Shown: positions 3,954 to 24,680 of the stretch, one piece after another
How the letters are laid out: every line of letters starts with the position of its first letter
Numbering within the stretch: position 1 is the first letter of the stretch
Virus record (IMG/VR): IMGVR_UViG_3300001450_010303
Location: 32,001 to 96,000 of that record
Origin: a virus
DNA: 64,000 bases
Reading direction: 5' to 3' (one strand)
The notes under the pieces: model-generated
The model's database searches: none
The model's input: only the letters and a program-made list of their open reading frames with translations
What the model was told of the DNA's origin: nothing
Translations under genes and position numbers: made by a program

Positions 3954-3960
3954 GGAAAAA

Positions 3961-5244
3961 ATGAAAAAAAAGAAAATTCTGGTTCTAAGTGATCACCCGC
4001 TCTCTCCGTCCGGAGTTGGGACACAAACAAAATATATGATTGAAGCTCTGCTTAAAACAGGTAGATATAAAGTAGTGTGTCTCGGCGGCGCTATCAAACA
4101 TCATGATTATTCTCCACAAAAGGTGAGTCCTTACGAAGATGATTGGGTTATATATCCTATCGATGGTTATGGCAATCATGAGACAATTAGATCTGTCTTA
4201 CAAAAAGAAAAACCAGATGTATTATGGTTCATGACCGATCCTAGATTCTATGGTTGGTTATGGGAGATAGAGAATGAAGTAAGGGCAAATATACCCATGG
4301 TATATTATCATGTTTGGGATAACTTCCCAGCGCCATTTTTTAATGCGCCGTTCTATCAATCAACTGATGAGGTGGTATGTATATCAAAAGTAACCCATGA
4401 AATCTTAAAGGTTACAGCACCCGATGTTTCAAGCCAATACTTGCCCCATGCAGTTAATTATAGCATGTTCCATCCGTATAAAACAACAGAAGAAAAAGCG
4501 ATAACACAAACTATAAAAGAAAGAATTTTCAATGCATCAGAAAATTTTAAAAACCCTAACAAAAAAATCTTCTTCTGGAACAACAGAAACGCTAGAAGAA
4601 AGCAACCAGGTACTCTAATTTGGTGGTTTAAAGAATTTTTAGACGAAGTCGGACACGACAAGGCAACTCTTTTAATGCATACAGACGCAAGAGACCCACA
4701 CGGCCAAGATTTACCGCATTTAATAGAACATTTAGGCATCAGTGATGGGCAAGTGCTGTTATCAACTGAGAAAGTAAGTTCTGAAGAATTAGCAAACTTA
4801 TACAATGTGTGTGATTATACAATTAATATTTCTGATGCGGAAGGATTTGGTTTGGCGACGTTAGAATCATTGTCTTGTGGAACTCCAATTATAGTTAATA
4901 TGACTGGTGGATTACAAGAACAAGTAACAAATGGAAAGGATTGGTTTGGATGGGGCATCCAACCTTCTTCTAAATCTGTGATCGGCTCTTTACAAGTTCC
5001 TTACATTTTTGAAGATAGAATCAGTAAAGAAGACTTTATTAATATTTTAAAGAAAGCAATAAATGTTAGCCCCAAGGCTTATAAAAGAATGTCAACCCAA
5101 GGCAATGCCCATGTTATGGAAAATTATAACTTTGAGGATTATGAAAAAAATTGGGTCAAAACTATAGACGATGTTATTAAAAGACACGGCTCATGGGAAA
5201 CAAGAAAAAATTATAAACGTTGGCATCTAATGGAGGTTGCATGA
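3961..5244 (+). CDS. glycosyltransferase family 4 (GT-B)
   Basis: SGVGTQ N-terminus, NRNARRK, EGFGLATLESLSCGTPII..TGGLQE; start moved to ATG 3961 after GAGG. Confidence 0.9.
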   Translation: MKKKKILVLSDHPLSPSGVGTQTKYMIEALLKTGRYKVVCLGGAIKHHDYSPQKVSPYEDDWVIYPIDGYGNHETIRSVLQKEKPDVLWFMTDPRFYGWLWEIENEVRANIPMVYYHVWDNFPAPFFNAPFYQSTDEVVCISKVTHEILKVTAPDVSSQYLPHAVNYSMFHPYKTTEEKAITQTIKERIFNASENFKNPNKKIFFWNNRNARRKQPGTLIWWFKEFLDEVGHDKATLLMHTDARDPHGQDLPHLIEHLGISDGQVLLSTEKVSSEELANLYNVCDYTINISDAEGFGLATLESLSCGTPIIVNMTGGLQEQVTNGKDWFGWGIQPSSKSVIGSLQVPYIFEDRISKEDFINILKKAINVSPKAYKRMSTQGNAHVMENYNFEDYEKNWVKTIDDVIKRHGSWETRKNYKRWHLMEVA

Positions 5245-6503
5245 AAAAGAAGATTTTATTTAAGGCGCCAGTTTTAACTCGCTCCGGATACGGAGAACAA
5301 TCACGGTTTGCACTAAGATCTCTTAGAAGCAGGGAAGATATATTCGATATTTATATACAACCTTTACAATGGGGAGCCACATCGTGGATTAATACGATGG
5401 ACGAGGAGCGATTATGGATTGATCAAGTAATCGAGAAAACAATCGCGTTTATACAGCAGGGAGGAAAATTTGATATGTCCTTTCAAGTTACGATCCCTAA
5501 TGAATGGGAGAAAATCGCCCCGATCAATATTGGATACACTGCCGGCATAGAAACAACTAAAGTAGCACATCAGTGGATTGATCGTGGAAATATAATGGAT
5601 AAAATTATAGTTGTTTCAAACCACTCGAAAAATACATTTAAGGATACAGTATATCAGGCTGTCAATGAAGAAACAAAAGAACAAATAGAGTTTCAACTTA
5701 AAACTGAAATAGATGTTGTAAATTATCCGGCTAAACAATATAATAATCTGCCAGAAATTGAATTAGAATTAAAACATGACATAAATTTTGTTTCAATAGC
5801 TCAATTAGGCCCAAGAAAAAATCTTCCAAATACAGTAAAATGGTTTGTAGAAGAATTTAAAGATGATGAAATTGGTTTAATTTTAAAAACTAATTTAGCA
5901 AAAAATTGTCACATGGATCGATTAAATGTTTTCAATCAATTAACGGGGATGCTGTCAAATTACAAAGATAGAAAGTGTAGTGTTTATCTGCTCCATGGTG
6001 ACATGGAAGATGATGAAGTTCATTCCATTTACAACCACGATAAAGTCAAGGCACTTGTTAGTCTAGCTCATGGAGAAGGATTTGGATTGCCAATATTTGA
6101 AGCAACTTATTCTGGAATGCCAGTAATCTGTAACGGTTGGTCCGGACAGTGCGATTTCATATATGATGAAGAGGGAACAGCAGGATTTTACAGCGTGTCA
6201 TATGACATGAACCAAGTACAGCCAGAAGTTGTGTGGGATGGAGTTCTAATTAAAGAATCTATGTGGGCATACTCTAGAGAACACTCAGCAAAGAAACAAA
6301 TGAGAGAATGTTACAACGATATAAAAGATCAAAAAGAAGGAAGTATCGCCTTAAACTCAAAATCATTTGGAGTTTATACACAAGAGAGATTCTCGAAAGA
6401 TAAGCAATATGAAAAGATGGTTAATGCACTACTACCATTTCTAGACTCTGAGGAAGACAAAAAGTGGCGTGATGTATTAGATCAAGTAGTGGAGTATGAG
6501 TAA
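5241..6503 (+). CDS. glycosyltransferase family 4 (GT-B)
   Basis: SGYGEQSR, RKN, HGEGFGLPIFEA...GMPVI..GWSGQCDF; GGAGG RBS before ATG 5241. Confidence 0.9.
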   Translation: MKKKILFKAPVLTRSGYGEQSRFALRSLRSREDIFDIYIQPLQWGATSWINTMDEERLWIDQVIEKTIAFIQQGGKFDMSFQVTIPNEWEKIAPINIGYTAGIETTKVAHQWIDRGNIMDKIIVVSNHSKNTFKDTVYQAVNEETKEQIEFQLKTEIDVVNYPAKQYNNLPEIELELKHDINFVSIAQLGPRKNLPNTVKWFVEEFKDDEIGLILKTNLAKNCHMDRLNVFNQLTGMLSNYKDRKCSVYLLHGDMEDDEVHSIYNHDKVKALVSLAHGEGFGLPIFEATYSGMPVICNGWSGQCDFIYDEEGTAGFYSVSYDMNQVQPEVVWDGVLIKESMWAYSREHSAKKQMRECYNDIKDQKEGSIALNSKSFGVYTQERFSKDKQYEKMVNALLPFLDSEEDKKWRDVLDQVVEYE

Positions 6504-8154
6504 GAAAGTAATATTTATCTCTGATTTCTTTATCAATGAAATCTGTGGTGGTGCCGAATTCTGTAATGATGCTTTAATTAATTCTTTAAAGCATCGTTTT
6601 ACAATTAAACAACATAAATCGAAATCGATAACACCGGAGTTTATTCGTACCAATAACGATTGCTTTTTTATAATTGCTAATTTCTTTATGCTAACTGAAC
6701 AGTGTAAAGAAGAATTAGCTAATGTAACATATGTTATATTTGAACATGATCACAAATATATTAGGTCAAATAACCCAGCGCTGTATAAGAATTTTTTAGC
6801 ACCAGAAAGTCAATTACAAAACAAACAGTTTTTTAAAAATGCATTAGCGGTGATATGTCAAAGCAAGAAGCACGCAGAAGTAGTACAGAAAAACTTATTA
6901 TTAACTAATGTAGTTAATTCAGCTGGGAATATCTGGACCGACGAACAAATTAGTATATTAGAAGCTAATATCGATAATGAAAAAGATATAGAATACGCGG
7001 TTTTAAACTCACAAAACAGAAACAAAGGCATGCCAGCCGCAATTGAATACTGTAAAAGAAAATCAATTGAGTTTCAGTTCCTTAACCCAGCACCATTCGA
7101 CGAATATATAAGAAGTATATCTAAGATAAAACATTTAGTATTTCTTCCACAATGGTTAGAATCATATAGTAGGCTAGCCATAGAGGCACGAATATTAGGG
7201 TGCAAGCTAATAACCAACGGCCTCCTCGGCGCTGCTAGCGAAGATTATTTTCAATTATCCGGCCGGGAACTATTGGAATATATCGTAGGAAATAATAATA
7301 GAATTATTAAAAACTGGACAAAACTAATTGAATCTGAGACAGCGATTTTTATAGAGCAAATAGAGCTTCCAAAAATAACGGTGTTTTGCCCCATTTATAA
7401 TGCAGAAAAATATATTGTTAATTTCTTAGATGATATGAAAAGACAAACAATATTTGATAACTGCGAACTAATAATAATAAATGCGAATTCACCACAAAAC
7501 GAAGATGAGCCTATCAATGCGTTTAAAAAGCAAAACAAAAATGTAGTATATAAGAAATTAAATTATAGAGCTACTGTTATGGAAACAGAAAATATGGCCA
7601 TCAAAATGGCCAAGGGAGAGTTCTTTGCACAGTGCTGTGTCGACGACGCACACTCTATAGATTATCTAGAGACATTGGCCAAACATCTACACTTCGCGGA
7701 AGATATTGATTTGGTGTATGCTGACTGCTTACAAACTACACGCCCTCTTGAATCGTTTGAGAACAACTCTTCAAACGGAAAACTATATGAGCATTCTATC
7801 AATACGTTCTCCCGAGAAAACATGATTAAGTGTCTGCCCGGCCCCATGCCTATGTGGAAAAAAGAAGTTCATGCCAAGAGTGGATATTTTAATGAGGCCA
7901 TGGCCCACGCCGGAGATTGGGATATGTTCTTAAGGATGGTCCTCGCGGGATCAAAATTTAAAAAGATTGATAGGCCTCTAGGACTTTATTATTATAACTC
8001 AGAAGGTTTATCAACTAGCCCAGAGTATTCTATGAAAAGAGGCCGCGAAGAGGCAAAGGTTTTTTTTGATAATAAAGAAATCTTTGGAGAACAAAATTAT
8101 AAAAGATACGAAGAGTATTTTAAACAATTCTTAAAGGAAGAGACAAATGAGTGA
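6496..8154 (+). CDS. two-domain glycosyltransferase (GT-B-like N-terminus plus GT2 C-terminus)
   Basis: GGAE and ESYSRLAIEARILGC in the N-half; ITVFCPIYNAEKYI, VDD and GDWDMFLR in the C-half. Confidence 0.85.
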   Translation: MSKKVIFISDFFINEICGGAEFCNDALINSLKHRFTIKQHKSKSITPEFIRTNNDCFFIIANFFMLTEQCKEELANVTYVIFEHDHKYIRSNNPALYKNFLAPESQLQNKQFFKNALAVICQSKKHAEVVQKNLLLTNVVNSAGNIWTDEQISILEANIDNEKDIEYAVLNSQNRNKGMPAAIEYCKRKSIEFQFLNPAPFDEYIRSISKIKHLVFLPQWLESYSRLAIEARILGCKLITNGLLGAASEDYFQLSGRELLEYIVGNNNRIIKNWTKLIESETAIFIEQIELPKITVFCPIYNAEKYIVNFLDDMKRQTIFDNCELIIINANSPQNEDEPINAFKKQNKNVVYKKLNYRATVMETENMAIKMAKGEFFAQCCVDDAHSIDYLETLAKHLHFAEDIDLVYADCLQTTRPLESFENNSSNGKLYEHSINTFSRENMIKCLPGPMPMWKKEVHAKSGYFNEAMAHAGDWDMFLRMVLAGSKFKKIDRPLGLYYYNSEGLSTSPEYSMKRGREEAKVFFDNKEIFGEQNYKRYEEYFKQFLKEETNE

Positions 8155-8557
8155 GAGAAAATACCTACCCACACTATCAGAATTGATAGACCGATTATCG
8201 ATCGCGCAACTTAAGGAGGTCTTTATACCAGACCATAAAGAAGAGTATGCGAGTGAAATATCAGACATTTTACATGATATAGACTTGACGCTTAAGGAAA
8301 AGGATGTTATAATAGATGGTAGAGCAATTAGAGCCCTCGTAGTATTATCACAAATGAACTTACACATTTGGCATAATGAGACAAACTATCGCAAGGGAAT
8401 AAGTGAAGGAAACGACCTGGAGCTAACCCATGGTCTAAATGGCATTAGAAACACAGCAAAGAATAGGATTCAAGAGTTATCCGGCGGCAGAAAAGACTAT
8501 AAAATTGATTGTTTAGCAGCCGATTTTAAGGATTGGGAGATTAGTTGGGATGAATAA
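8147..8557 (+). CDS. hypothetical protein, DUF4254-like
   Basis: ELIDRLSIAQLK and N..IWH.E...R...N..R pattern. Confidence 0.55.
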   Translation: MSERKYLPTLSELIDRLSIAQLKEVFIPDHKEEYASEISDILHDIDLTLKEKDVIIDGRAIRALVVLSQMNLHIWHNETNYRKGISEGNDLELTHGLNGIRNTAKNRIQELSGGRKDYKIDCLAADFKDWEISWDE

Positions 8558-8852
8558 AGATTTAACATTCAAAGAATATTATGAATATTATCTGACACTT
8601 CATAAAGATCCACGAACCCGACGCTTACATATACTTGGCCAGGCCGCTACAATCGTATATGTCGCTGGTATTATTTATACAAGTCTCTGGCCCCTACTAT
8701 TAGCTGCCCCTTTCGTTGTTTATCCATTTGCGTGGTCAGGTCACTTCTTTTTCGAAAAGAATACACCGGCCGCCTTTACGCGCCCAATTTGGGCAAAAGC
8801 ATGCGATTGGGTTATGCTTAAAGACACAATTACAGGAAAAATAGAACTATGA
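8550..8852 (+). CDS. DUF962/Mpo1-like membrane protein
   Basis: YYLTLH....RRLH, YPFAWSGHFFFEKNTPAAF. Confidence 0.8.
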   Translation: MNKDLTFKEYYEYYLTLHKDPRTRRLHILGQAATIVYVAGIIYTSLWPLLLAAPFVVYPFAWSGHFFFEKNTPAAFTRPIWAKACDWVMLKDTITGKIEL

Positions 8853-9778
8853 ACATTTTAATTACCGGTGGCGCCGGATACATCGGCAGTGAATTAACAC
8901 AATATCTCTTAGACGATGGGCACAAGGTCATTGCATATGATAATTTAATGTACGATCCCACATCGTTACTGAGATATACAAACAACCCTAATTTCTCTTT
9001 TGTAAAAGGAGATGTTAGGAACCTTGAGTTACTAAAGAAATATACCGAGAAAGCTGATATTATAATCCCCTTAGCTGCTTTAGTTGGGTTTCCTTTATGT
9101 GACAAAGACGTCCGCGGTGCGCACGAAATTAACCATGAGGTAAATGCTTGGATTGCAAAAAACAAATCCGTGGATCAATTAGTTATCTATCCGTGCACCA
9201 ACTCTGGATATGGAACGAGTGCTGGTGGCTCCGTGGTCACTGAAGAGTCACCCTTAAATCCTGTGTCTTTATACGGTAGAACAAAAGTAGCAGGTGAGCG
9301 TGAATATAGAAACGTTGAAAATCATGTCACCTTTAGGTTAGCTACGGTATTCGGTCCCGGTTCTAGAATGAGAACCGACCTATTAGTTAATAACTTTGTT
9401 CTCAAGGCGCTTAGAGAACGCGTCCTGGTTCTCTACGAATGTGAATTTATGAGAAACTACGGACACCTCCAAGATGTATGCCGTGCTTTTAAGTGGGCTA
9501 TTAACAATTGGGAAGTTGTCAAGAATGACACATATAATATGGGTAACGACTCGCTCAATATGAACAAACTTCAATTAGCACAAAAGATTCAAGAGCATCT
9601 TCCGCTAGAAATTATTAAAGCAGAATTCAACACTGATCCAGACACCCGCGATTATACAGTTAGCAGTCAAAAGTTTTATGACACAGGTTTTGAGTGTAAA
9701 TATGATTTAGACGATGGAATTAAACAGCTTATCACGGCATATAGTATTATTGAATCTCCGTGGTACGCAAATTACTAG
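8849..9778 (+). CDS. NDP-sugar SDR resembling Campylobacter Cj1427-type GDP-heptose 4-dehydrogenase
   Basis: TGGAGYIGS, ADIIIPLAALVG.PLC, YP.TNSGYG, YxxxK, TFRLATVFG..RMR.DLLVN, DPD.RDY.VS (match to Cj1427 recalled from memory). Confidence 0.8.
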   Translation: MNILITGGAGYIGSELTQYLLDDGHKVIAYDNLMYDPTSLLRYTNNPNFSFVKGDVRNLELLKKYTEKADIIIPLAALVGFPLCDKDVRGAHEINHEVNAWIAKNKSVDQLVIYPCTNSGYGTSAGGSVVTEESPLNPVSLYGRTKVAGEREYRNVENHVTFRLATVFGPGSRMRTDLLVNNFVLKALRERVLVLYECEFMRNYGHLQDVCRAFKWAINNWEVVKNDTYNMGNDSLNMNKLQLAQKIQEHLPLEIIKAEFNTDPDTRDYTVSSQKFYDTGFECKYDLDDGIKQLITAYSIIESPWYANY

Positions 9779-9785
9779 GAAAATT

Positions 9786-11297
9786 ATGAGTAAAAAATTA
9801 GACGTTTTGTTCGTGCATCCAAATGGTGCTCCTATCATTTATCAAGAATTGTCAAAGACATACTCCGCGATAGAACCCCCCATTTGGGCAGCTTTATTAG
9901 CTAACAATGCCCGGGCAAACGGGTGGAATACCCAGCTAATTGATTGTGAAGCAGAACAACTGAATGCTTCAGAATCAGCAGAAGTAATAGGATCCTACAA
10001 CCCAAAATTAGTTGCAATTGTAATCTATGGCCAACAACCATCAGCCTCCACACAAAATATGGCCGGCACCCGAGCGCTCTTGGCAGAGATTCGGGCGTCA
10101 CATGGCCATCTTAAAACTGTATTAATAGGTTTGCACCCATCAGCTGTATCTCGTCAAACATTATCAGAGGAACAGACTGACTTTGTGTGCCAGGGGGAAG
10201 GTGTGCACACGGTTAATGCTTTGTTGAGTATCAATATGAATGATACCTCTCAATTGGCAACTGTGCCGGGTCTATGGTATCGAGAAGACGGCAAAATTAG
10301 ATGTACTAAACCAGCCCCAATTATTGCTCAAGAAGCTTTAGAAAAAGAACTTCCAGGTATGGCGTGGGACTTATTGCCTATGGACAAATATCGAACTTCT
10401 AACTGGCATGCAATGACGAATGGGAATGATAGAGCGCCGTTTGCTTCTTTATATACTAGTTTGGGTTGCCCATTTCGTTGTAGCTTCTGCTGTATCAACG
10501 CCCCATTCGGAAACAATAATTTAGAGAATTGGGACACCGCCCGCAATAAGTTCAGATATTGGGATCCGGAATACATTATAAAGGAATTCGATCAGTTTCA
10601 CAAGATGGGGATCCGCAATATAAAAATAGCAGATGAAATGTTCGTCTTATATAAAGATCACTTTATGAGGCTATGTGAATTAATACATGAGAGGGGATAC
10701 GACTTCAACATCTGGGCCTACTCTAGAATAGATACAGTTAAAGAAGAATATTTAGAGACACTCAAAAAAGCAGGGGTTAATTGGTTAGCTCTAGGAATAG
10801 AATCAGGAAACACGGCAGTTAGAAAAGATGTAACAAAGGGAAAATTTACGGATTTAAATATACGTGATTTAGTTGATAGAGTACAAGACGCTGGTATTAG
10901 TGTAATAGGAAATTATATATTTGGGCTACCCGAAGATACGATCGAAACAATGGAAGACACCTTATCTCTATCAATGGAATTAAATTGTGAATTTTCAAAT
11001 TATTATTCGGCCATGGCATACCCTGGATCAAAATTATATTTAGAAGCTTTAAAAGAAGGGTGGGAATTACCTGACACCTATGTGGGTTATTCACAACATT
11101 CGTATGAAACTCAGCCACTCCCAACTAATCATATCTCAGCAGCCGAAGTATTAAAATTTAGAGATGAATCTTTCTTAAAATACTATAAAAATCCAAAGTA
11201 TCTTGATATGATAGAAGAAAGATTTGGAAACAATACTCGTAGTGGTATCGAAGAGATGACTAAAATTAAACTAAAAAGAAAAATCTTAGGAGATTAA
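9786..11297 (+). CDS. cobalamin-binding radical SAM enzyme (class B methylase-like)
   Basis: N-terminal B12-binding region (GLHPS, DFVCQGEG), CPFRCSFC, DEMF, GIESG, IFGLPEDT, YPGS; start moved to ATG 9786. Confidence 0.9.
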   Translation: MSKKLDVLFVHPNGAPIIYQELSKTYSAIEPPIWAALLANNARANGWNTQLIDCEAEQLNASESAEVIGSYNPKLVAIVIYGQQPSASTQNMAGTRALLAEIRASHGHLKTVLIGLHPSAVSRQTLSEEQTDFVCQGEGVHTVNALLSINMNDTSQLATVPGLWYREDGKIRCTKPAPIIAQEALEKELPGMAWDLLPMDKYRTSNWHAMTNGNDRAPFASLYTSLGCPFRCSFCCINAPFGNNNLENWDTARNKFRYWDPEYIIKEFDQFHKMGIRNIKIADEMFVLYKDHFMRLCELIHERGYDFNIWAYSRIDTVKEEYLETLKKAGVNWLALGIESGNTAVRKDVTKGKFTDLNIRDLVDRVQDAGISVIGNYIFGLPEDTIETMEDTLSLSMELNCEFSNYYSAMAYPGSKLYLEALKEGWELPDTYVGYSQHSYETQPLPTNHISAAEVLKFRDESFLKYYKNPKYLDMIEERFGNNTRSGIEEMTKIKLKRKILGD

Positions 11298-15908: not shown

Positions 15909-15909
15909 A

Positions 15910-16923
15910 ATGAAAAAGGTTTTAATTACAGGTAGCCAAGGTTTTATTGGCTCATATCTATGTACCGAATATTTGGACAAGGGGTATCAAGTTGTCGGCA
16001 TTGATAACTTTTCAAAATACGGCCCAATCTCCCGCCCCCATGATAACCATGTAAATTTCGAACTAATTGAGATGGACATAATCGATGTAAAAACATCAGA
16101 GATTCCACCGACTCTAAAAGATGTAGATTACATTATTGCGGGTGCTGCTATGATCGGTGGTATTACATACTTTCACAAATATGCTTATGATCTGTTGGCA
16201 ACAAATGAAAGAATTTTAGCCTCTACATTTGATCTAGCGATAAAGCTCAACAAATTTCATAGTTTGAGACGAATCGTAGTATTGTCTAGTAGCATGGTTT
16301 TTGAGAATACAACTGTATATCCAACTCCAGAGAGTGAAATTAAGACATGTGCCCCACCGCTAAGTACATACGGGTTTCAAAAATTAGCCGTTGAATATTT
16401 TTGTAAAGGAGCCTACGAACAATACAAGCTACCTTATACAATAATACGTCCTTTTAATTGTGTTGGTGTTGGAGAGGAAGACGCCATTGGAGAACATGAA
16501 GTTAAATCTGGAAACATTAAACTCATGATGAGTCATGTCCTGCCGGATATCGTTAATAAAATTATGAAGGGACAAGACCCTTTACATATCCTTGGTTCAG
16601 GCGAACAGATACGCTGTTACACAAATGGAAAAGACATCGCCCGAGGAATACGGATGTGCATGGAAAGTTCAGCCGCGATAAACGAGGATTTCAATATCTC
16701 AATATCTCAGCCAACATCAGTAATAGAGTTAGCTAAGGTAGTATGGGGTATTTTAAACCCAGGAAAAGAATTCACGTTTGTTTCTGATAAAGCATATGAA
16801 TATGATGTGCAAAGGCGTATTCCAAATACTAATAAGGCAAAAGAAATGTTAGGGTTCGAGGCACAGATTGGTCTGATAGAATCTGTGCGAGAGGTTATAG
16901 AATATATGAGAGGTAAAACGTGA
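15910..16923 (+). CDS. NAD-dependent NDP-sugar epimerase/dehydratase/decarboxylase (SDR)
   Basis: TGSQGFIGS, SSSMVF, YGFQK, RPFNCVG, GSGEQIRCYT; GAGG RBS before ATG 15910. Confidence 0.88.
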   Translation: MKKVLITGSQGFIGSYLCTEYLDKGYQVVGIDNFSKYGPISRPHDNHVNFELIEMDIIDVKTSEIPPTLKDVDYIIAGAAMIGGITYFHKYAYDLLATNERILASTFDLAIKLNKFHSLRRIVVLSSSMVFENTTVYPTPESEIKTCAPPLSTYGFQKLAVEYFCKGAYEQYKLPYTIIRPFNCVGVGEEDAIGEHEVKSGNIKLMMSHVLPDIVNKIMKGQDPLHILGSGEQIRCYTNGKDIARGIRMCMESSAAINEDFNISISQPTSVIELAKVVWGILNPGKEFTFVSDKAYEYDVQRRIPNTNKAKEMLGFEAQIGLIESVREVIEYMRGKT

Positions 16924-17708
16924 AAAAACCAGAGATATCACTTATATTACCGAGCATCAGAACAGAACGATTACCAAAATTATATGAATCAATCCTTAGT
17001 TCAACCAGTCGCGACTTCGAGTTAATAGTATGCGGCCCTAATCCATTACCAGAGGAGTTAAAAGAAGAAAAAAATGTCAAATACGTAAAGGATTATGGCT
17101 CACCAGTCCGTGCATCTAATATAGCTGCTTCTCTATGCGAAGGAGAAATATATACTTGGTTGGCAGATGACTGTCTATTTTTTGAAAATTCACTTGACAC
17201 ATGTATAGAAGCATATTATAATATGGGTGCGGCTAAAAACAACGTCCTCGTTGCAAAGTATTTCGAAGGACAAAACGGCTCCCTCGAACGGAGTACGTTA
17301 CAGCCAGATAGCTATTTTAGAATTAATGGAACCCCCGCAGCTTCAGAACACATTCCAAATGACTGGTGGTTATTTAATATAGCTTTTATGAGATCTAATT
17401 TTTTTAATGAACTGGGTGGATGGGATTGTTCGTACGAGGGAACATGGGCCTCCCATGCTGACATGGCCATTAGAGCCCAATATCTTGGCGCCAACGTCAA
17501 GATGGCAGATATCCCATTATTTGAGTGTGACCACATGCCTGGCGGCACCGGAGACCACATGCCAATCTTTATTTGCCAACATGAACATGACGAGCCATTA
17601 CTACAACAAAGATACAGAGATCCAAACTGGACTGTTAATATAAATCCAAAACTTAAACTAGAAAACTGGAAAAACGCACCTGCAGTGTGGAAGAGGAGAT
17701 TCAAATAA
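16920..17708 (+). CDS. GT2-like glycosyltransferase, paralogue B
   Basis: ISLILPSIR, KDYGSPVRA, ADD, ELGGWD, GDHMP, VWKRRF; GTG start. Confidence 0.75.
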   Translation: MKKPEISLILPSIRTERLPKLYESILSSTSRDFELIVCGPNPLPEELKEEKNVKYVKDYGSPVRASNIAASLCEGEIYTWLADDCLFFENSLDTCIEAYYNMGAAKNNVLVAKYFEGQNGSLERSTLQPDSYFRINGTPAASEHIPNDWWLFNIAFMRSNFFNELGGWDCSYEGTWASHADMAIRAQYLGANVKMADIPLFECDHMPGGTGDHMPIFICQHEHDEPLLQQRYRDPNWTVNINPKLKLENWKNAPAVWKRRFK

Positions 17709-18484
17709 TGCATTACGACCTATCAATTTGCTTACCTGCCCACAGAACACATCTATGGAAAAGGTTATATGATACTGCAGCTGAAGCTGTTGGCCCAAAT
17801 CATACTTGGGAAATGATCTTAGTTGGCCCCAATGAACCACCAGAAGAGCTAGCTAAGAAGAATAACTTTAAATTTTTTAAAGATTACGGTACTCCATCTC
17901 GTTGCGCTCAAATAGCAACAACTTTAGCTGAAGGAGAACTAATGATGTGGGGCTCGGATGATGGATATTTTCTTAAGGATTCAATTGGTGAATGTATTGA
18001 AATACATAAAAATCTACCATTTAAGGATGCGATAATTATAAAATATGCAGAAGGTCGTGATATTAGCGGAAAATGTCCCGAAGATAGCTATTGGACTGCT
18101 TGGACTCACCCGGACTTACGTTTGCCAGGAGTTCCAAAAGACTATAAAATAACTCTTTTAGCAATGTATAAATTAGAATATTTTAGAGAATTAGGTGGCT
18201 GGGATTGTAGGTTTGAACATTTAAATATGAATACACATGATTTATCCTTCAGGGCTCAGCGAAATGGAAGTAAAATACACTTCTCTCCAAACCTCGTCCT
18301 AACATGTGATTGGAACCCAAATGAGGGCGACCATATACCAGTACAACAAGCTTATCATGCCAATGACGCACCCCTGTTTAGGAATATGTATATGCAAGAT
18401 CAATCGGAAAGAATCAAAATTGATTACTTTAATTGGGCTAAAAGCCCACCGGTTTGGAAAAGAAGATTCGGAGAAGAAAAATGA
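17708..18484 (+). CDS. GT2-like glycosyltransferase, paralogue C
   Basis: LSICLPAHR, KDYGTPSRC, SDD, ELGGWD, GDHIP, VWKRRF. Confidence 0.75.
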   Translation: MHYDLSICLPAHRTHLWKRLYDTAAEAVGPNHTWEMILVGPNEPPEELAKKNNFKFFKDYGTPSRCAQIATTLAEGELMMWGSDDGYFLKDSIGECIEIHKNLPFKDAIIIKYAEGRDISGKCPEDSYWTAWTHPDLRLPGVPKDYKITLLAMYKLEYFRELGGWDCRFEHLNMNTHDLSFRAQRNGSKIHFSPNLVLTCDWNPNEGDHIPVQQAYHANDAPLFRNMYMQDQSERIKIDYFNWAKSPPVWKRRFGEEK

Positions 18485-19410
18485 AAACCATCTTAGTAAC
18501 AGGTGGCCGCGGCCTAGTAGGATCTGCTATCCGCAGCATCAGCACCTTATATCCACAATATAACTTTGTCTTTTCAGGACACAAAGAACACGATCTGACT
18601 GTTGAAGAAGACGTAAAGAGATTATTTGAAGAGGTTAAACCAGCTTTCGTAATCCATGCGGCGGCGCGCGTTGGAGGAATAGGGAGAAACTTAAACTCCC
18701 CAGCGCAACAATATTACAGCAACATTTTAATGAATGCGTTTGTAATACACCACGCTCAGTTAAATGGAGTAGAGAAATTATTAGCATTCTCATCAGTGTG
18801 TGCTTTCCCAGCCGGCTCCAAAAACATTCACGAAGACATCCTACACGATGGAGAGCCATATCCTGCTCATTACTCTTACGCGTATTCCAAGAGAATGGTA
18901 GATGTCCAGATCCAGGCATATAAACAACAACACAAAGTTAATTATTGTTCTGTGATCCCGGGAAACATCTTTGGTGAGAATGATAACTTTAATTTAGAAG
19001 ATGGCCACGTAGTTCCATCATTGGTGCGAAAGTGTTTTCACGCAAAACAGACAAATACTCCACTGCAAGTATGGGGTGATGGAACACCATATCGCGAGTT
19101 CTTATATGCTAAAGATGTTGCAAAAGCTTGTATAGAATTAATAGAAAAACCAGGCGAACTTCCGCTGAGAGTCATTGTCTCCGGACAAGAAGAAACACAG
19201 ATTAAAGACCTAGTGAAATTAGTTTGCGATGCCACAGGTTATCATGATGTTGAGTGGCTAACAGATAAGCCTAACGGACAGATGCGCCGACCAACAAACA
19301 AAGATGTTTTTAATAAAGCACTTCCAGATTTCGAATATACAGATTTAGAGACCGCTATGAAAAACACCGTAAATTGGTTCGAGGAGAACTACCCAAACGT
19401 GAGACTATGA
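18481..19410 (+). CDS. fcl: GDP-L-fucose synthase family reductase (Fcl/ColC-like)
   Basis: TGGRGLVGSA, HAAARVGGI, SSVCAFP, YAYSK, NIFGENDNF...HVVPSL, VWGDGTPYREFLY, DKPNGQ. Confidence 0.88.
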   Translation: MKTILVTGGRGLVGSAIRSISTLYPQYNFVFSGHKEHDLTVEEDVKRLFEEVKPAFVIHAAARVGGIGRNLNSPAQQYYSNILMNAFVIHHAQLNGVEKLLAFSSVCAFPAGSKNIHEDILHDGEPYPAHYSYAYSKRMVDVQIQAYKQQHKVNYCSVIPGNIFGENDNFNLEDGHVVPSLVRKCFHAKQTNTPLQVWGDGTPYREFLYAKDVAKACIELIEKPGELPLRVIVSGQEETQIKDLVKLVCDATGYHDVEWLTDKPNGQMRRPTNKDVFNKALPDFEYTDLETAMKNTVNWFEENYPNVRL

Positions 19411-20378
19411 AAAAAGCTTTAATTACAGGAATAAATGGCCAAGATGGCTCATACCTAGCAGAGCTTCTTTTAGAGAAGGGATATGATGTGCATGGGATCG
19501 TTAGAAGGAACTCAATACCAGAGAATCAAACAGCCAGGATCCAACACATATATGAAGATATCAAAAATAATTTATATCATGCTGATGTGTGCGATATGTC
19601 TTCATTATTATCTATAATTAATAAAACAAAGCCTGATGAAATTTATAACTTAGCAGCCCAAAGCCATGTTAGAATTAGTTTTGATCAGCCAAGCTATACC
19701 CTCGATACAATTGGTACCGGAACACTTAATTTATTAGAGGTTATACGCTTGGTCAGTCCGGATACTAAACTATATCAGGCCTCAAGCTCAGAGATGTTCG
19801 GAAATTCCATAGATCCGGACGGATTTCAACGTGAATCAACACCAATGAATCCGGTAAGTCCATATGCTTGCGCCAAACAGTTAGCCTATAACCTCGTAAG
19901 GTGTTATAGAGATTCATATAATTTATATGCATCAAACGGCATTTTATTTAATCATGAATCACCCCGCCGCGGCGGCAACTTTGTAACCAACAAAATAGTG
20001 ATTGGGGCTGTAAAGATAAAAAAGGGATTGCAAGATAAATTGGCGTTAGGAAATTTAGACTCCACAAGAGATTGGGGACATGCGAAAGATTACGTTAAAA
20101 TAATGTGGCAGATTATGCAGCTGGAGCATCCCAGTGATTATGTGTGTGCAACAGGAAAATCTCATTCAGTCAGAGAATTTGTAGATCTTACTTTTAGTAA
20201 GTTAGATCTGGATTATAAGGACTATGTTATCCAAGATCCTCGATTTTTCCGCCCTAACGAATTGCATGACCTGAAAGGAGACACCGCTAAACTAAAAGAA
20301 GCAATAGACTTAAAATTTACATATACATTTGATATAATGATAGATGAGATGATTGATTATTGGATGGAGAAACTATAA
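19407..20378 (+). CDS. gmd: GDP-mannose 4,6-dehydratase
   Basis: ALITGINGQDGSYLAELLL, YNLAAQSHV, QASSSEMFG, SPYACAK, GILFNHESPRRG, RDWGHAKDYV. Confidence 0.95.
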   Translation: MKKALITGINGQDGSYLAELLLEKGYDVHGIVRRNSIPENQTARIQHIYEDIKNNLYHADVCDMSSLLSIINKTKPDEIYNLAAQSHVRISFDQPSYTLDTIGTGTLNLLEVIRLVSPDTKLYQASSSEMFGNSIDPDGFQRESTPMNPVSPYACAKQLAYNLVRCYRDSYNLYASNGILFNHESPRRGGNFVTNKIVIGAVKIKKGLQDKLALGNLDSTRDWGHAKDYVKIMWQIMQLEHPSDYVCATGKSHSVREFVDLTFSKLDLDYKDYVIQDPRFFRPNELHDLKGDTAKLKEAIDLKFTYTFDIMIDEMIDYWMEKL

Positions 20379-20930
20379 ATGGTTAAATTAAACCTTGGTT
20401 GTGGAGATAGAAAAATCCATGGGTTTATAAATGTTGATGCACGCGAAGATGTTTCACCTGATGTAATATGCGATGTGACTAAAATACATGAAAAATTCAG
20501 AGATGCAGACATTATATATGCATGCCACGTATTAGAACACTTCCCAACAAAACCATTTACATTCCAAAAAATCACATGGGAAGAAGTGCTGCTTAGTTGG
20601 TTTCTGGCTTTGAAGCCTGGTGGAAAACTCAGGGTTTCAGTCCCTGATATTCGGGCTGCTTGTGAATATTATTTACGAACTAATGATTTTGAGAGCGTAA
20701 GAGCGTTTTTTTATGGAGGACAAAAATATGATTTTGATTTTCATTATCATGGGTGGTCTGAAGAAACACTTACAAAGGCACTCAAGAAAATTGGTTTTAC
20801 GAAAGTAGAAATATATGATTGGAAGACAACTGAGCACTTTTATATTGATGATTATAGCCAAGCATATTTGCCACATATGGATAAAACAAATGGCAAGCTG
20901 ATGAGCTTAAACATAGAAGCAACAAAATAA
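20379..20930 (+). CDS. class I SAM-dependent methyltransferase
   Basis: KLNLGCG, HVLEHF, LKPGGKLRVSVPD. Confidence 0.85.
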   Translation: MVKLNLGCGDRKIHGFINVDAREDVSPDVICDVTKIHEKFRDADIIYACHVLEHFPTKPFTFQKITWEEVLLSWFLALKPGGKLRVSVPDIRAACEYYLRTNDFESVRAFFYGGQKYDFDFHYHGWSEETLTKALKKIGFTKVEIYDWKTTEHFYIDDYSQAYLPHMDKTNGKLMSLNIEATK

Positions 20931-20940
20931 GGAAATTAAA

Positions 20941-22104
20941 ATGGACATTACTTACCCGCTAGCAAAAGAGACTATCAATGATGAAGATATCAATGCACTT
21001 TGTGATTGGTTGAAGGGTTACCCTCGCCTGACCAAAGGTGATCTTACATGGAAAGTAGAAGAGGACTGGGCGAAATACATAGGAACCTCCTATTCTGTTT
21101 TTAATAATTCAGGATCGTCCGCCAATCTACTCATGGTCGCCGCGGCAATACAGTGCGGCCGTATCGCGAACAAAAAGATTGTAATTCCCTCAGTCGGCTG
21201 GGTTACTACGGTCGCACCAGCAATGCAACTTGGTTTAGAACCAATAATGTGTGGTGCCGATCCAGAGACATATGGTATGGATTTAGACCAACTTGAGACA
21301 ATATGCGAAGAGCATAACCCTGACGCCGTGATGTTCGTCCAAGTATTGGGAATACCACACCATAAAGAGCGCCTGCTGGCTCTCAAAGAAAGATATGGAT
21401 TCACCCTCTTAGAAGACGCATGCGCCGCTCTGGGAGCATCCTACAACGATGGAGCGATGGTAGGAACTATAGGAGACATGTCGACATTCTCATTCTATTT
21501 TGGCCACCAGTTATCAACCATCGAAGGTGGAATGGTTAATACTAATGACAAAGAACTATATGATATGTTATTGATGCTCCGGAGCCATGGCTGGGCAAAA
21601 GATTTAGACGAAGAAACGCGCAATAAAATGATGACTGACCATGGTGTTGATGACTTCCACTCCCCATTTACCTTTTTTATCCCAGGATATAATCTGAGAT
21701 CCACCGATCTTCAAGCATTTTTAGGAATAAGACAAATTGAAAAGGCTGAATGGGCGGCAACAAACCGAAATACGAACCATAAACTATATGCAGAAAAACT
21801 AGAAGGGGTGGTAGAATTTCAAAGATGGGGTGAAAATAATCCTGTTTCTATCTCTTTCGGAGCCCTCGCAAGAAGCACGGTACAAAGGAAAGAAATAGTA
21901 GATAGATTGGTAGAGAATGGTATAGAAACAAGGATCTTCAGCGCTGGAAACCTTGGCCGCCACCCATTTTGGACTGATAAATACCCAGTTTTTAAAGATA
22001 GGGTGAGTGATAAAATACACGCGTGTGGATTCTTTTTGCCTAACTATCCTGAACTAACTGAAAAAGAAATTGACTTTATTTGTAATGTTGTTAAAGGAGT
22101 TTAG
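20941..22104 (+). CDS. colD: PLP-dependent DegT-fold enzyme, ColD-like GDP-4-keto-6-deoxymannose 3-dehydratase
   Basis: NSGSSANLL, EDAC..LGA, TFSFYFGHQLSTIEGG (His at the usual Lys position), LRSHGW, PGYNLRSTDLQA; 387 aa. Confidence 0.75.
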   Translation: MDITYPLAKETINDEDINALCDWLKGYPRLTKGDLTWKVEEDWAKYIGTSYSVFNNSGSSANLLMVAAAIQCGRIANKKIVIPSVGWVTTVAPAMQLGLEPIMCGADPETYGMDLDQLETICEEHNPDAVMFVQVLGIPHHKERLLALKERYGFTLLEDACAALGASYNDGAMVGTIGDMSTFSFYFGHQLSTIEGGMVNTNDKELYDMLLMLRSHGWAKDLDEETRNKMMTDHGVDDFHSPFTFFIPGYNLRSTDLQAFLGIRQIEKAEWAATNRNTNHKLYAEKLEGVVEFQRWGENNPVSISFGALARSTVQRKEIVDRLVENGIETRIFSAGNLGRHPFWTDKYPVFKDRVSDKIHACGFFLPNYPELTEKEIDFICNVVKGV

Positions 22105-22841
22105 TGCGTATCTTGGTCATAGGAGAGAGTTGTAAAGACATTTACCAATATGGTGATTGTGTAAGACTGTGCCCCGAGGCGCCAGTCCCTGTTTTTAGAA
22201 GCGGAAATCTAAAGACTGAGAACCCAGGAATGGCGAAAAATGTTTGGCGGAACATAAAATCTTTAGTAGATTTTGATGTCGATATAGAGACTAATAAAAA
22301 CTGGCTTAGTATCACTAAGACTAGATGCGTCGATAATAGAACAAATTATATCATAGTCCGCATCGATGAAGGAGATGATGGTTACTCTCGGTGTGATGTA
22401 AAAAGTATCGAGTACCATAAATACGATGTCATAGTTATATCGGATTACAATAAAGGATTTTTAACAGAGTCAGATATCGAATATGTTTCCAATCAACACT
22501 CGACTACTTTTTTAGATACGAAAAAGATACTCGGAGAATGGTGTAAAAAAATCAAGTTTATTAAAATAAATGAATTTGAATACGAGAGAACAAAGCACAA
22601 ATTGACACCAGAACTAATCGAAAAGATGATAATAACTCTCGGACCCAATGGAGCAAGACACAAAGGTATTGGATTTCCAGTACCAAAGGTAGAAATAAAA
22701 GACACTTCAGGCGCCGGCGATACGTTTGTTGCAGCATTAGCCTCGTCTTATGCGACAACAAAAGACATTTTTAAAGCAATTGAATTTGCAAATGAAAATG
22801 CTACTAAAGTTGTCCAGCGAAAGGGCGTAAGTACTATATGA
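22104..22841 (+). CDS. PfkB-family heptose-7-phosphate kinase (HldE/RfaE domain I-like)
   Basis: RLCPEAPVPV, VISDYNKGFL, KINEFE, DTSGAGDTF; GTG start. Confidence 0.85.
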   Translation: MRILVIGESCKDIYQYGDCVRLCPEAPVPVFRSGNLKTENPGMAKNVWRNIKSLVDFDVDIETNKNWLSITKTRCVDNRTNYIIVRIDEGDDGYSRCDVKSIEYHKYDVIVISDYNKGFLTESDIEYVSNQHSTTFLDTKKILGEWCKKIKFIKINEFEYERTKHKLTPELIEKMIITLGPNGARHKGIGFPVPKVEIKDTSGAGDTFVAALASSYATTKDIFKAIEFANENATKVVQRKGVSTI

Positions 22842-23233
22842 CTAAAGCTGTCTGGACCAATGGATGTTTTGACATATTACACCGCGGCCACATTGAAATG
22901 CTTCAATATGCTAAATCTTTGGGCGACTGTTTAATAGTTGGAATTGATTCAGATGCAAAAGTAAAGTCAGACAAGGGCGTAGAAAGGCCATATAACAATG
23001 AAATAGATAGAAAATTTATGTTGAAAGCAATAAAATTCGTTGATGAGGTGGTTATATTTGATTCGGCTATTAAGTTAGAAAACTTGATAGAAAACATAGC
23101 ACCATATTACATGGTTATAGGATCTGATTGGAAAGGAAAAAAAGTTGTAGGACAACAACATTGCAAAGAGCTTAAATTTTTTGATAGAATCAGTAGCTAT
23201 TCAACAACAAATATACTGGAGAATAATAGATGA
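22838..23233 (+). CDS. heptose-1-phosphate nucleotidyltransferase (HldE/RfaE domain II-like)
   Basis: TNGCFDILHRGH, GIDSD..V...KG..RP, VDEVVIF, GSDW, RISSYSTT. Confidence 0.88.
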   Translation: MTKAVWTNGCFDILHRGHIEMLQYAKSLGDCLIVGIDSDAKVKSDKGVERPYNNEIDRKFMLKAIKFVDEVVIFDSAIKLENLIENIAPYYMVIGSDWKGKKVVGQQHCKELKFFDRISSYSTTNILENNR

Positions 23234-23565
23234 CATATGTATTTGATATTGATGGCACCTTATGTATAAAAGATGCGTCAGCGCCTTATAACGACGCTTC
23301 GCCCCTACCTCAGAGAATTAACATGGTGAATAATTTATATGATGCCGGCCATACTATAATAATGCAAACCGCCCGCGGAATGGGAAGACATAATAATAAC
23401 CAACAACTTGCAGTACAACAATTTTACGCGCTAACGGCGGAACAACTTAAGGATTGGGGAGTTAAATATCACCTTTTATTTTTAGGAAAGCCGGCAGGAG
23501 ATATTTATATAGATGATAAGGGGATTAAAGATGAAGACTTCTTTACCGATGATACACGTCAATAA
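23230..23565 (+). CDS. small HAD phosphatase (capsule-biosynthesis phosphatase type)
   Basis: FDIDGTL, TARG, GKP..DIYIDDK. Confidence 0.85.
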   Translation: MTYVFDIDGTLCIKDASAPYNDASPLPQRINMVNNLYDAGHTIIMQTARGMGRHNNNQQLAVQQFYALTAEQLKDWGVKYHLLFLGKPAGDIYIDDKGIKDEDFFTDDTRQ

Positions 23566-23890
23566 AGGCTGGGGCTGGGAACGATGGATTGTTAACAATG
23601 AGGAATATTGCGGAAAATTGTTATTCTTTAATAGTGGGAAAAAATGCTCATGGCATTACCACAAATTAAAAGACGAAGTATTCTATCTACAATCTGGGAA
23701 AATGATGATATACTATTCAGATGAAGATGATTTATCTGAAGCGATACAACTGGAATTAAACCCAGGAGATAACTTTCATGTATATCGAGGGCTTAGGCAT
23801 CAAATGCTAGCCATAGAAGATTCAGAATTATTTGAATTTTCAACACAACACTTTGATTCAGACAGCTATAGAATTTTAAAAGGAGATTAA
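23531..23890 (+). CDS. cupin-fold protein (sugar isomerase-like)
   Basis: KGWG.E, YCGKLL, SWHYHKLKDE, HQM, EFST.H; start uncertain (23531 or 23549). Confidence 0.8.
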   Translation: MKTSLPMIHVNKGWGWERWIVNNEEYCGKLLFFNSGKKCSWHYHKLKDEVFYLQSGKMMIYYSDEDDLSEAIQLELNPGDNFHVYRGLRHQMLAIEDSELFEFSTQHFDSDSYRILKGD

Positions 23891-24352: not shown

Positions 24353-24680
24353 AATAATAACATCTATACTTTTAGTTATATCAACAATATTTAGTGTCGG
24401 TATGCTTGTTTATACAAGGACAGTAATAGTAAAACTGTTGTCTGTATCAGAAGAATTAGGAGACTTGCAGGAGATGATTAATATTTTCACCAACCACACT
24501 AGAGATGTTTATGAAATGGATATGTTTTACGGTGACGAAACACTTAAAGGGTTGCTTGAACATGCAATATCCCTGAACGAACATATGGCTACATTTGAAT
24601 ATATCTATAATTTAACAGAAGAAGCAGAAGAAAAGGAGACAGATGAAGCAGACAACAGAGCCGCTCAAGAAGAAGCGTAA
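24339..24680 (+). CDS. hypothetical membrane-anchored protein
   Basis: N-terminal hydrophobic helix followed by an acidic region. Confidence 0.65.
   Translation: MSRLEIITSILLVISTIFSVGMLVYTRTVIVKLLSVSEELGDLQEMINIFTNHTRDVYEMDMFYGDETLKGLLEHAISLNEHMATFEYIYNLTEEAEEKETDEADNRAAQEEA

Follow-up and report, generated by a model that had tools for sequence, protein, structure and literature searches.

A glycan-synthesis island with an early-type promoter and no recognizable membrane steps at a fixed locus in an abundant marine lineage of T4-related phages

Introduction

Glycan-synthesis gene clusters have been known in marine T4-like phages since the first cyanophage genomes, and similar lists of their enzymes have been reviewed (PMC7824862). 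So-called lipopolysaccharide (“LPS”) or cell-wall-modification clusters are described for the cyanophages P-SSM2, S-SCSM1, and S-SCSM2R and for pelagimyophages (PMC7824862, PMC7029224, PMC12801897), all of them large marine T4-like phages, and are read in the literature as modifying the host O-antigen (PMC7029224, PMC7824862). The subject here is an island of 24 open reading frames (ORFs) for glycan synthesis at positions 3910–23890 of a 64,000-nucleotide stretch of viral DNA (IMG/VR record IMGVR_UViG_3300001450_010303, bases 32001–96000; hereafter the window). Like the published clusters, it belongs to a T4-related myovirus and differs in content between close relatives, and in both cases the acceptor is a putative one. 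The published clusters have 10–25 genes, including many glycosyltransferase (GT) families, short-chain dehydrogenases/reductases (SDRs), PfkB kinases, HIGH-type nucleotidyltransferases, cupin isomerases, and radical S-adenosylmethionine (SAM) enzymes, and a comparable set is found here. The present phages differ from those, however, in belonging to a clade like that of RM378, immuto, and Mel-JY01, without psbA; their island is at a fixed locus outside the tail-fiber “host recognition cluster”; and the absence of membrane steps has been systematically tested.

Some viruses direct glycan synthesis to their own particles. Giant viruses glycosylate capsids or fibrils by means of clade-specific gene clusters, as with the capsid N-glycans of chloroviruses and the fibril glycans of Megavirinae (PMC7826918, PMC10117803). 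These systems share with the island virus-encoded pathways for rare bacterial-type sugars, soluble cytoplasmic GTs, and a variable, clade-specific content, and the nearest solved relative of both of its most conserved GTs (the “anchors”) is a chlorovirus protein, B736L of NY-2A, if a remote one (13–17% identity in structural alignments). In mycobacteriophages, according to the accounts of Freeman et al. (2023) given in PMC12619734 and PMC12801897, soluble phage GTs, with or without a methyltransferase, modify structural proteins in the cytoplasm; as described there, two to four GT genes lie inside the structural operon, the sugars are those of the host, and the acceptors are the C-termini of capsid and tail-tube proteins. 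The present island, in contrast, has 24 genes with sugar pathways of its own in an early unit outside the structural operon, and a complete relative shows no capsid tag.

Two further kinds of system invite comparison. Bacterial surface-polysaccharide loci likewise unite nucleotide-sugar synthesis genes and several GTs in one operon, and O-antigen and capsule loci for colitose and ADP-heptose (E. coli O55/O111-type gmd-colD-colC; hldE-gmhB-gmhA) have in common with the island Gmd, a His-type ColD, an Fcl/ColC-like enzyme, HldE-like domains, and a HAD phosphatase. Unlike them, the island has no initiating transferase, flippase, polymerase, chain-length regulator, ligase, ManB, ManC, or SIS-type GmhA. 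Phage GTs acting on DNA, such as the T4 alpha- and beta-GTs on 5-hydroxymethylcytosine and those for the arabinosyl-5-hydroxycytosine of RB69 and DLP3 (PMC13326640), are early GT-B enzymes encoded near DNA-metabolism genes, some with sugar-nucleotide genes of their own, as here; in the known cases, however, a ThyA-family or TET-type enzyme makes the acceptor base, and neither was found in the genomes searched for this study.

New here are the defined layout (early promoter, nuclease, two core GT4 genes, hypervariable cargo, sigma-like gene), the anchor pair as a core feature of the RM378/immuto/Mel-JY01 clade, the systematic demonstration of absent membrane steps, and the particular predicted pathways of the island (colitose, heptose with a cupin, and a thiamine diphosphate (ThDP)/radical-SAM sugar). 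As leading hypothesis we propose phage-autonomous, cytoplasmic glycosylation of a phage protein, probably one of the virion, and give this slightly less than an even chance of being right.

Sequences and Comparison Set

The window is part of a 105,274-bp virus contig (G000), estimated by CheckV to represent 57% of a roughly 190-kb T4-related marine phage. It is viral, as a first-pass annotation made from the window sequence had assumed, and not cellular: there are gp25-like and gp6-like baseplate genes on the contig, and a T4-type gp23 capsid gene in complete relatives. Comparisons drew on 69 IMG/VR loci recovered via the nuclease gene next to the island, ~150 related half-islands for cargo content, and 100%-complete relatives for absences. 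Five of the latter are available (187–203 kb), all with the gp23 gene and none with psbA, on which ground a cyanophage identity was rejected. By capsid and baseplate proteins the nearest cultured phages are Flavobacterium phage immuto, Microcystis phage Mel-JY01, and Rhodothermus phage RM378; a link to the moraphage lineage (PMC12619734) could not be made. The marine lineage is very abundant in the ocean, with more than 7,800 protein clusters (90% identity) matching anchor GT 1 in marine metagenomes at an E value of 1e-5 or better. Comparison of the cluster and baseplate with 50,697 phage records at the DNA level gave no match, and only protein-level searches were informative.

A Fixed Early-Type Locus with Variable Cargo

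All 24 island ORFs are on the plus strand, with intergenic gaps of at most 10 nt and most stop/start junctions overlapping (ORF listing, with Pfam and NCBIfam scans); the ~23 tightly coupled glycan genes first described thus become 24 co-oriented, abutting ones. They are headed, together with a nuclease gene, by an early-type sigma70 promoter (TTGACA-17-TATATT, plus strand, 3134–3162; 11 of 12 box positions match) in the 32-nt gap before that gene. The TTGACA and TATAAT boxes are kept in nearly all of 16 aligned relatives while the surrounding sequence is just 47% identical, and the −10 context is that of a promoter array in the early region of the same contig. The nuclease (3183–3953, plus strand), a Cas4-like PD-(D/E)XK protein (Pfam PDDEXK_1, 1.8e-15), is present in the 69 IMG/VR relatives as a conserved 5′ flank, and its gene overlaps that of the first GT.

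Next come the anchors. Anchor GT 1 (3910–5244, plus strand, with the true start probably at 3958) is a retaining GT-B enzyme of family GT4 (Pfam Glycos_transf_1, 2.4e-13; GT4-conflict, 32 bits), and anchor GT 2 (5220–6503, plus strand) a divergent GT4 (Pfam, 4.8e-8). Each has an orthologue in every relative, at 50–78 and 41–66% identity respectively, and in each the glutamates of the E-x7-E motif are invariant (E286/E294 in GT 2). AlphaFold2 models (predicted local distance difference test scores of 88 and 87.7) both have chlorovirus B736L as best PDB match (E 1.4e-20 and 3.6e-15), and their structural neighbors include the small-molecule GT4s BshA and MshA and the protein O-GlcNAc transferases GtfA and SdgB. 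A GtfA/GtfB-like pair, with one catalytic GT and one inactive chaperone GT, was considered and dropped because both anchors keep the invariant E-x7-E. In three loci anchor GT 2 has an extra C-terminal domain (L048:6197-8221, L044:12003-14048, L066:12999-14960), making it 653–681 rather than ~425 aa long.

In 69 of 69 IMG/VR loci the two GT4 orthologues are found 3′ of the nuclease (41–78% identity); most often they follow it without interruption, but in some loci a Gmd gene comes between. Beyond them, gene content changes from phage to phage. By coordinates, the island, taken as reaching from the nuclease gene to the conserved gene downstream, is 13–23 kb long in ~20 close relatives and 6–10 kb in more distant ones. 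The 1080 distinct cargo proteins of the ~150 half-islands fall into 300 clusters, and 140 representatives match 96 Pfam families, dominated by SDR epimerases/dehydratases, GT1, GT2, and GT4 transferases, DegT aminotransferases, and methyltransferases, along with cytidylyl- and nucleotidyl-transferases, HAD hydrolases, B12-radical-SAM enzymes, cupins, and sulfotransferases. Some cargo genes are 87–96% identical where the flanking core genes are 65–79% identical (for example window positions 8147–12448 against loci L023, L029, and L031), an imbalance indicating recent lateral exchange of sugar modules between phages by recombination.

At the 3′ edge the last cargo gene, whichever it is, extends into the ribosome-binding site of the conserved gene that follows, and there is no conserved promoter between the two. 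Three genes further on is a gene for a 234-aa sigma-factor-like protein (24643–25347, plus strand) with at least 594 IMG/VR relatives. Its nearest named ESM Atlas cluster is a viral sigma-factor family (0.97), while Pfam, PHROG, and NCBIfam searches gave no match; the label is thus a plausible lead, and the protein a candidate late sigma factor at the end of an early unit. The island seems to form the main part of an early or middle (pre-late) transcription unit that ends with this gene, after which the late baseplate genes begin, and it is not part of a structural operon. The T4 late-promoter motif TATAAATA is neither enriched nor positioned 5′ of genes, and generic promoter and terminator scans returned counts equal to shuffled expectation. 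A position just upstream of a sigma factor and the baseplate, as first described, is right as to flanking order, but the sigma assignment is only that plausible lead, and the gp25 baseplate gene (start 34946) is 11 kb downstream of the island, behind a 2326-aa protein.

Absence of Membrane Steps

In a hydrophobicity scan of every ORF, the entire 105-kb contig proved free of polytopic membrane proteins, and all 24 island enzymes are soluble, in keeping with the first-pass description of the GTs as soluble and unaccompanied by membrane machinery. None of the 1312 cargo ORFs of the ~150 half-islands has three or more hydrophobic segments, and there is no transporter-like polytopic protein anywhere in two complete relatives, G001 and G004. 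Hidden Markov model searches of the contig and four complete relatives, which were positive in 10–14 control genomes, found no Wzx (PF01943), Wzy_C (PF04932; Wzy/WaaL), or ABC2_membrane (PF01061) protein, and neither of the initiating transferases Bac_transf (PF02397) and Glycos_transf_4 (PF00953). There is likewise no flippase or priming enzyme among the ~300 cargo clusters and 96 Pfam families. Because the contig is only 57% complete, the absence of export genes rests on the four 100%-complete relatives; with the cluster, the full contig, and these genomes all negative, the absence of export and priming genes holds for the lineage, and not just for the fragment. Since no membrane step is encoded, the glycan would be built in the cytoplasm, as proposed in the first-pass annotation from the one cluster and now strengthened by absences across ~150 half-islands and four complete genomes.

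Cytoplasmic assembly could still serve the host envelope. Soluble phage enzymes might build an oligosaccharide on undecaprenyl-pyrophosphate (Und-PP)-GlcNAc or lipid A-core at the cytoplasmic face of the inner membrane, leaving its display to the host flippase (or MsbA), ligase, and Lpt; the product would block superinfection, progeny re-adsorption, or grazing. Host envelope remodeling is the published interpretation of the analogous cyanomyophage and pelagimyophage clusters (PMC7824862, PMC7029224, PMC12801897). The sugars are typical of LPS or capsule, early expression suits a superinfection function, the hypervariability resembles that of O-antigen loci, and the hosts known for the clade are without exception diderms, whose lipid carriers are conserved. 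To our knowledge, however, the phage O-antigen modifications shown experimentally all use membrane proteins (Gtr, Oac, Wzy variants), and no protein of these types is encoded in the ~150 islands or the four complete genomes. Host flippases and ligases would also need to accept hundreds of different foreign glycans, and for marine cells that grow slowly the replacement of surface LPS within one lytic cycle seems kinetically doubtful. The anchors, moreover, are vertically inherited across hosts of three phyla, as set out below. Taking both sides together, we consider remodeling of the host envelope rather unlikely.

The Anchor Pair in Cultured Phages

Protein searches of cultured phages found the anchors as an adjacent pair in the same order in immuto, Mel-JY01, and RM378, at 26–34% identity, a level close to the 30% of the gp6-like baseplate protein. 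In immuto they are genes 89 and 90, directly after a PD-(D/E)XK nuclease gene, and the genes behind them, for GTs, aminotransferases, methyltransferases, and epimerases, take up at least 8 kb. In Mel-JY01 they follow a PD-(D/E)XK nuclease and GuaB, and the genes that come next encode GT-A proteins and methyltransferases. The RM378 pair, gp13 and gp14, is unaccompanied by sugar-nucleotide genes; the BFVD matches at ranks 1 and 50 have lengths equal to those of these two proteins. Anchor GT 1 is also found in an uncultured 484-kb phage. There is no full-length match to the pair in cyanomyophages or pelagiphages, and anchor GT 2 has weak matches to actinobacteriophage GTs, some at positions consistent with a virion-gene region.

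The GT4 pair is thus a core gene pair of a deep RM378/immuto/Mel-JY01 clade. Its inheritance in the manner of a core gene across phages of Flavobacterium, Microcystis, and Rhodothermus and the marine lineage suggests that the conserved acceptor is one of the phage and not of the host; with hosts in three phyla, a phage-borne acceptor is an easier explanation than a host-specific surface. Nearness to the baseplate, which the first-pass annotation had treated as meaningful, did not survive this comparison. The pair is 30–80 kb from the baseplate in immuto and Mel-JY01, no island is found directly upstream of the baseplates of these two phages, and in all three cultured phages the pair is among replication, recombination, and nucleotide-metabolism genes. 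Baseplate adjacency is peculiar to the marine lineage, and is not evidence of function.

Candidate Acceptors

The DNA-metabolism setting raises the possibility that the anchor GTs glycosylate phage DNA as a protection against restriction, with the cargo serving to diversify the sugar. The linkage to the Cas4-like nuclease is conserved, in relatives polymerase, RNR (ribonucleotide reductase), Erf, and helicase genes are also close by, the promoter is of early type, and anchor GT 1 matches Pfam GT4-conflict; diverse glycans on phage DNA are known (Pyle et al., 2024, as cited in PMC12619734; PMC13326640). Against this, no enzyme for a hydroxylated base was found. A ThyA homologue (PF00303) is present in none of the five complete relatives, by a search whose positive control worked; Tet_JBP (PF12851), searched for without a positive control, and TGT/DpdA have no match in the contig and four complete relatives. 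The DNA of immuto, which has orthologous anchors, was shown by LC-UV-MS/MS (liquid chromatography with ultraviolet and tandem mass spectrometric detection) to contain canonical dA, dC, and dT; throughout, the place of dG is taken by fdPreQ1, which is not glycosylated (PMC10516641). A DNA acceptor is disfavored because of these absences and the sugar-free DNA of immuto; in addition, seven GTs and three or more rare-sugar pathways are far beyond what any known DNA glycan calls for. We regard sugar hypermodification of DNA as very improbable.

Among phage proteins, several features could conceivably mark an acceptor. Ser/Thr-rich C-terminal tails, of which there are none on the source contig or in G001, are found on three G004 proteins (for example ...TSTTSTNTSGY; G004:C1:88170-89447, 124653-125258, and 141996-142856, all minus strand), and could serve as an acceptor tag particular to the strain. 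In four tail-region proteins the tripeptide [ST][GAS]S occurs at 3–4 times the level in whole-protein or 30-aa-window shuffles (z 4.5–8.2): the proteins at window positions 37126–39180, 39170–49627, and 63011–64000 (continuing to contig position 96123), and at contig positions 96148–97446. No such enrichment is seen in the 2326-aa, gp6-like, 1185-aa, and 1495-aa proteins or in any island enzyme. The sites are mostly bordered by hydrophobic or aromatic residues, and the motif could be a sequon.

The major capsid protein of the marine lineage (G004:C1:105813-107624 = L177:1450-3261, minus strand) is ~600 aa long and has a ~190-aa insertion (approximately aa 146–338) rich in Ala, Gly, Ser, and Thr, possibly a surface domain. 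The insertion is absent from the capsid proteins of immuto, Mel-JY01, and RM378, and the tblastn alignment covers only ~59% of the query.

The acceptor might also be cytoplasmic but outside the virion: a non-virion phage protein, a host protein (for takeover or anti-defense), a soluble glycoconjugate, or a glycolipid that is not displayed. Early expression, soluble enzymes, the GT4-conflict signature, and the small-molecule and protein-modifying GTs among the structural neighbors of the anchors would all fit. A single intracellular target, however, offers no obvious selector for a strain-variable cargo of 6–23 kb drawn from ~300 gene families, and such diversity usually marks exposed surfaces. 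We think a product of this kind improbable, if still worth bearing in mind.

Several observations weigh against a virion acceptor. The island has an early or middle setting, and the cultured phages immuto, Mel-JY01, and RM378 have the GT4 block in the company of genes for polymerase, clamp loader, RNR, Erf, helicase, and lysis rather than of virion genes. Pathways to colitose, heptose, and nonulosonic acids belong to the classic repertoire of LPS and capsule synthesis, and at the inner membrane face a soluble GT4 can use lipid A-core or an Und-PP-linked acceptor, with export by the host. The lack of phage export genes is compatible with use of a host lipid carrier, flippase, ligase, or lipid A-core acceptor. 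According to fold searches the anchors are generic retaining GT4 enzymes, and their GT-B fold neighbors give no indication of the acceptor. The G004 major capsid protein has no mycobacteriophage-type Ser/Thr C-terminal tail; of the three G004 proteins that do have Ser/Thr tails, the first has a G001 counterpart without one, and the other two have no clear G001 orthologue. The [ST][GAS]S motif may instead be a fold signature of repeated domains. Giant viruses, by comparison, infect eukaryotes, and their virion glycans have been shown chemically.

Of the interpretation first placed on this cluster, then, cytoplasmic synthesis with no membrane step has stood and the argument from baseplate adjacency has not; an acceptor on the virion remains the leading hypothesis. 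A phage protein, probably of the virion, would suit enzymes confined to the cytoplasm and anchors shared by the whole clade; it would also agree with the precedent of giant viruses (PMC10117803, PMC7826918) and with B736L being the nearest solved structure for both anchors.

Glycosyltransferases and Predicted Sugar Pathways

The first-pass count of seven GTs is supported: the two GT4 anchors, one GT2, one Glyco_trans_1_2, and three GT-A-like paralogues, all on the plus strand like the other genes of the island. The GT2 enzyme (6496–8154; Pfam Glycos_transf_2, 3e-13) is 552 aa long and has an N-terminal extension; the Glyco_trans_1_2 enzyme (12423–13394) has a Pfam match at 4.4e-19. The first GT-A-like paralogue is at 13391–14230 and the second and third, which have a weak Pfam GT2 match, at 16920–17708 and 17687–18484. 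Identity among the three is 33–42%, a DD pair is invariant in them, and a profile search matches them weakly to a GT-A-type structure (PDB 5TZE, E 1e-4).

Nucleotide-sugar and tailoring enzymes are also present as first described, by Pfam and NCBIfam. Three of them suggest a route to GDP-colitose. Gmd, a GDP-mannose 4,6-dehydratase (19374–20378; Pfam, 1.4e-114), scores 399.5 bits with NCBIfam gmd against a cut-off of 415. An SDR resembling GDP-L-fucose synthase or the ColC epimerase-reductase (18454–19410) matches NCBIfam GDPFucSynFcl at 6e-61, with 206 bits against a cut-off of 500. A DegT-fold protein (20941–22104) is like ColD, the GDP-4-keto-6-deoxymannose 3-dehydratase (best PDB match 2GMS, 2e-53, full length), with His replacing the Schiff-base Lys and aligning with the residue altered in the 3B8X variant. 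Together these would constitute a GDP-colitose route, as judged by family membership and this His. A pattern scan of 185,579 prokaryote species genomes, which finds close relatives only, returned no confirmed relative of the ColD-like protein at more than 33% identity, and so gave no clue to a donor or host.

The last four genes (22104–23890) are read as an NDP (nucleoside diphosphate)-heptose pathway, on the strength of NCBIfam matches that all fall short of the equivalog cut-offs. They putatively encode a heptose-7-P kinase-like PfkB protein, N-terminally short (rfaE_dom_I, 7e-29, 101 bits; cut-off 345); a nucleotidyltransferase of cytidylyltransferase fold like HldE domain II (rfaE_dom_II, 4e-35, 121 bits; cut-off 181); a capsule-type HAD phosphatase (8e-8, below cut-off); and a 125-aa cupin with weak likeness to L-ribose and D-lyxose isomerases (E 0.003–0.08). 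There is no SIS protein in the island, and hence no SIS-type sedoheptulose-7-P isomerase GmhA, for which the cupin may stand in. The block recurs in loci L008, L048, L062, L065, and L066.

ThDP-dependent routes to branched sugars are known, and a third group of genes could by analogy yield a branched or C-methylated deoxysugar. It includes an SDR (8849–9778; Pfam Epimerase, 1.4e-30) that resembles NDP-hexose 4,6-dehydratases and epimerases, with dTDP-glucose 4,6-dehydratase the best NCBIfam match but below cut-off; a B12-binding radical SAM enzyme (9714–11297; Pfam Radical_SAM, 6e-22, and B12-binding, 2.6e-14; no equivalog reached), a probable sugar C-methyltransferase or rearrangement enzyme; and a split ThDP enzyme (11298–12448), with an E1-alpha-like part of 203 aa (E1_dh, 3.9e-11) and a part of 179 aa like the PYR domain of E1-beta (Transket_pyr, 3.6e-6; NCBIfam pyruvate dehydrogenase E1 alpha and beta, below cut-off), which may donate a two-carbon branch to a 4-keto sugar. 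The three move as one module among relatives. Ahead of them are an Mpo1-like (DUF962) small protein with one hydrophobic segment (8550–8852; PF06127, 2.4e-29) and a 136-aa protein with no family match (8147–8557), which is 74–88% identical in relatives sharing the branched-sugar module.

The remaining island genes include a SAM-dependent methyltransferase (20379–20930; Pfam Methyltransf_23, 2.9e-7), an SDR epimerase/dehydratase (15877–16923; Pfam Epimerase, 2e-36), and a 299-aa protein (15009–15908) with no Pfam, NCBIfam, or PDB match. A 261-aa protein like NDP-sugar dehydrogenases (14227–15012) is truncated, with Pfam UDPG_MGDP_dh_N and central domains only and NCBIfam profile positions 62–300 of 413; it lacks ~70 positions at the start of the profile, where the NAD-binding domain has its N-terminal end, as well as the entire C-terminal domain, and may be a remnant or a minimal variant. 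Some 5 kb 5′ of the island is a second small gene of cytidylyltransferase fold (contig 29950–30441; L002:11950-12441), 57–80% identical in most relatives, which may be part of the sugar system or of NAD metabolism.

In the scheme we infer, including its sugar products, order of steps, and above all its acceptor, the host-type early promoter would drive the island so that enzymes and sugar pools are ready before the late proteins appear. The cargo enzymes would draw on host precursors to make rare activated sugars: GDP-mannose would be converted to GDP-colitose by Gmd, the His-type ColD, and the Fcl/ColC-like reductase; sedoheptulose-7-P to NDP-heptose by the cupin isomerase, PfkB kinase, HAD phosphatase, and nucleotidyltransferase; and an NDP-4-keto-6-deoxyhexose to a branched or C-methylated sugar by the SDR, split ThDP enzyme, and B12-radical-SAM enzyme. 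The two clade-wide GT4s would place the first sugars on a clade-conserved acceptor, which is most likely to be a protein of the phage and probably one in the virion, and the five variable GTs and the methyltransferase would lengthen and decorate the glycan. Since the set of GTs and tailoring enzymes varies, related phages would carry different glycans.

Flanking Genes

Upstream, the island is flanked by genes for PhoH and the Cas4-like nuclease. Downstream come small conserved genes, the 2326-aa protein, and gp25-like and gp6-like baseplate wedge proteins; there are also proteins of 3485, 1185, and 1495 aa. Near the end of the contig (101579–104737; L003:6579-9737), a single 1052-aa protein is a fusion of an Mre11/SbcD-like phosphoesterase and a Rad50/SbcC-like ATPase, whose T4 counterparts (gp47, gp46) are separate.

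Implications

If the acceptor is in the host envelope after all, this would be the first sign of lytic phages repainting host LPS with only cytoplasmic enzymes and host exporters, and would resolve a conjecture on the “LPS genes” of cyanophages that has stood for 20 years. In both cases, the island can be recognized by a simple marker, its fixed promoter-nuclease-GT4-GT4 anchor, and its cargo is a large reservoir of soluble rare-sugar enzymes. The question of the acceptor is directly testable because two of the relatives, immuto and Mel-JY01, are in culture.

For the virion as acceptor the consequences can be put only tentatively. It is possible, though we would not put it as high as an even bet, that one of the ocean's most abundant lineages of T4-related phages coats part of its virion with a strain-specific complex glycan, giving phage “serotypes” under diversifying selection. 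The giant tail and baseplate proteins or the enlarged insertion domain of the capsid protein would be candidate targets, and swappable cassettes would supply colitose, heptose, branched or C-methyl sugars, nonulosonic acids, sulfate, and methyl groups. If true, glycan coats would be mainstream in abundant ocean phages rather than an oddity of mycobacteriophages and giant viruses: a trait taking up ~10% of the genome and diversifying like a bacterial O-antigen, with a bearing on adsorption, on particle stickiness and decay, on grazing on viruses, and on how a phage “strain” is defined in viromes.

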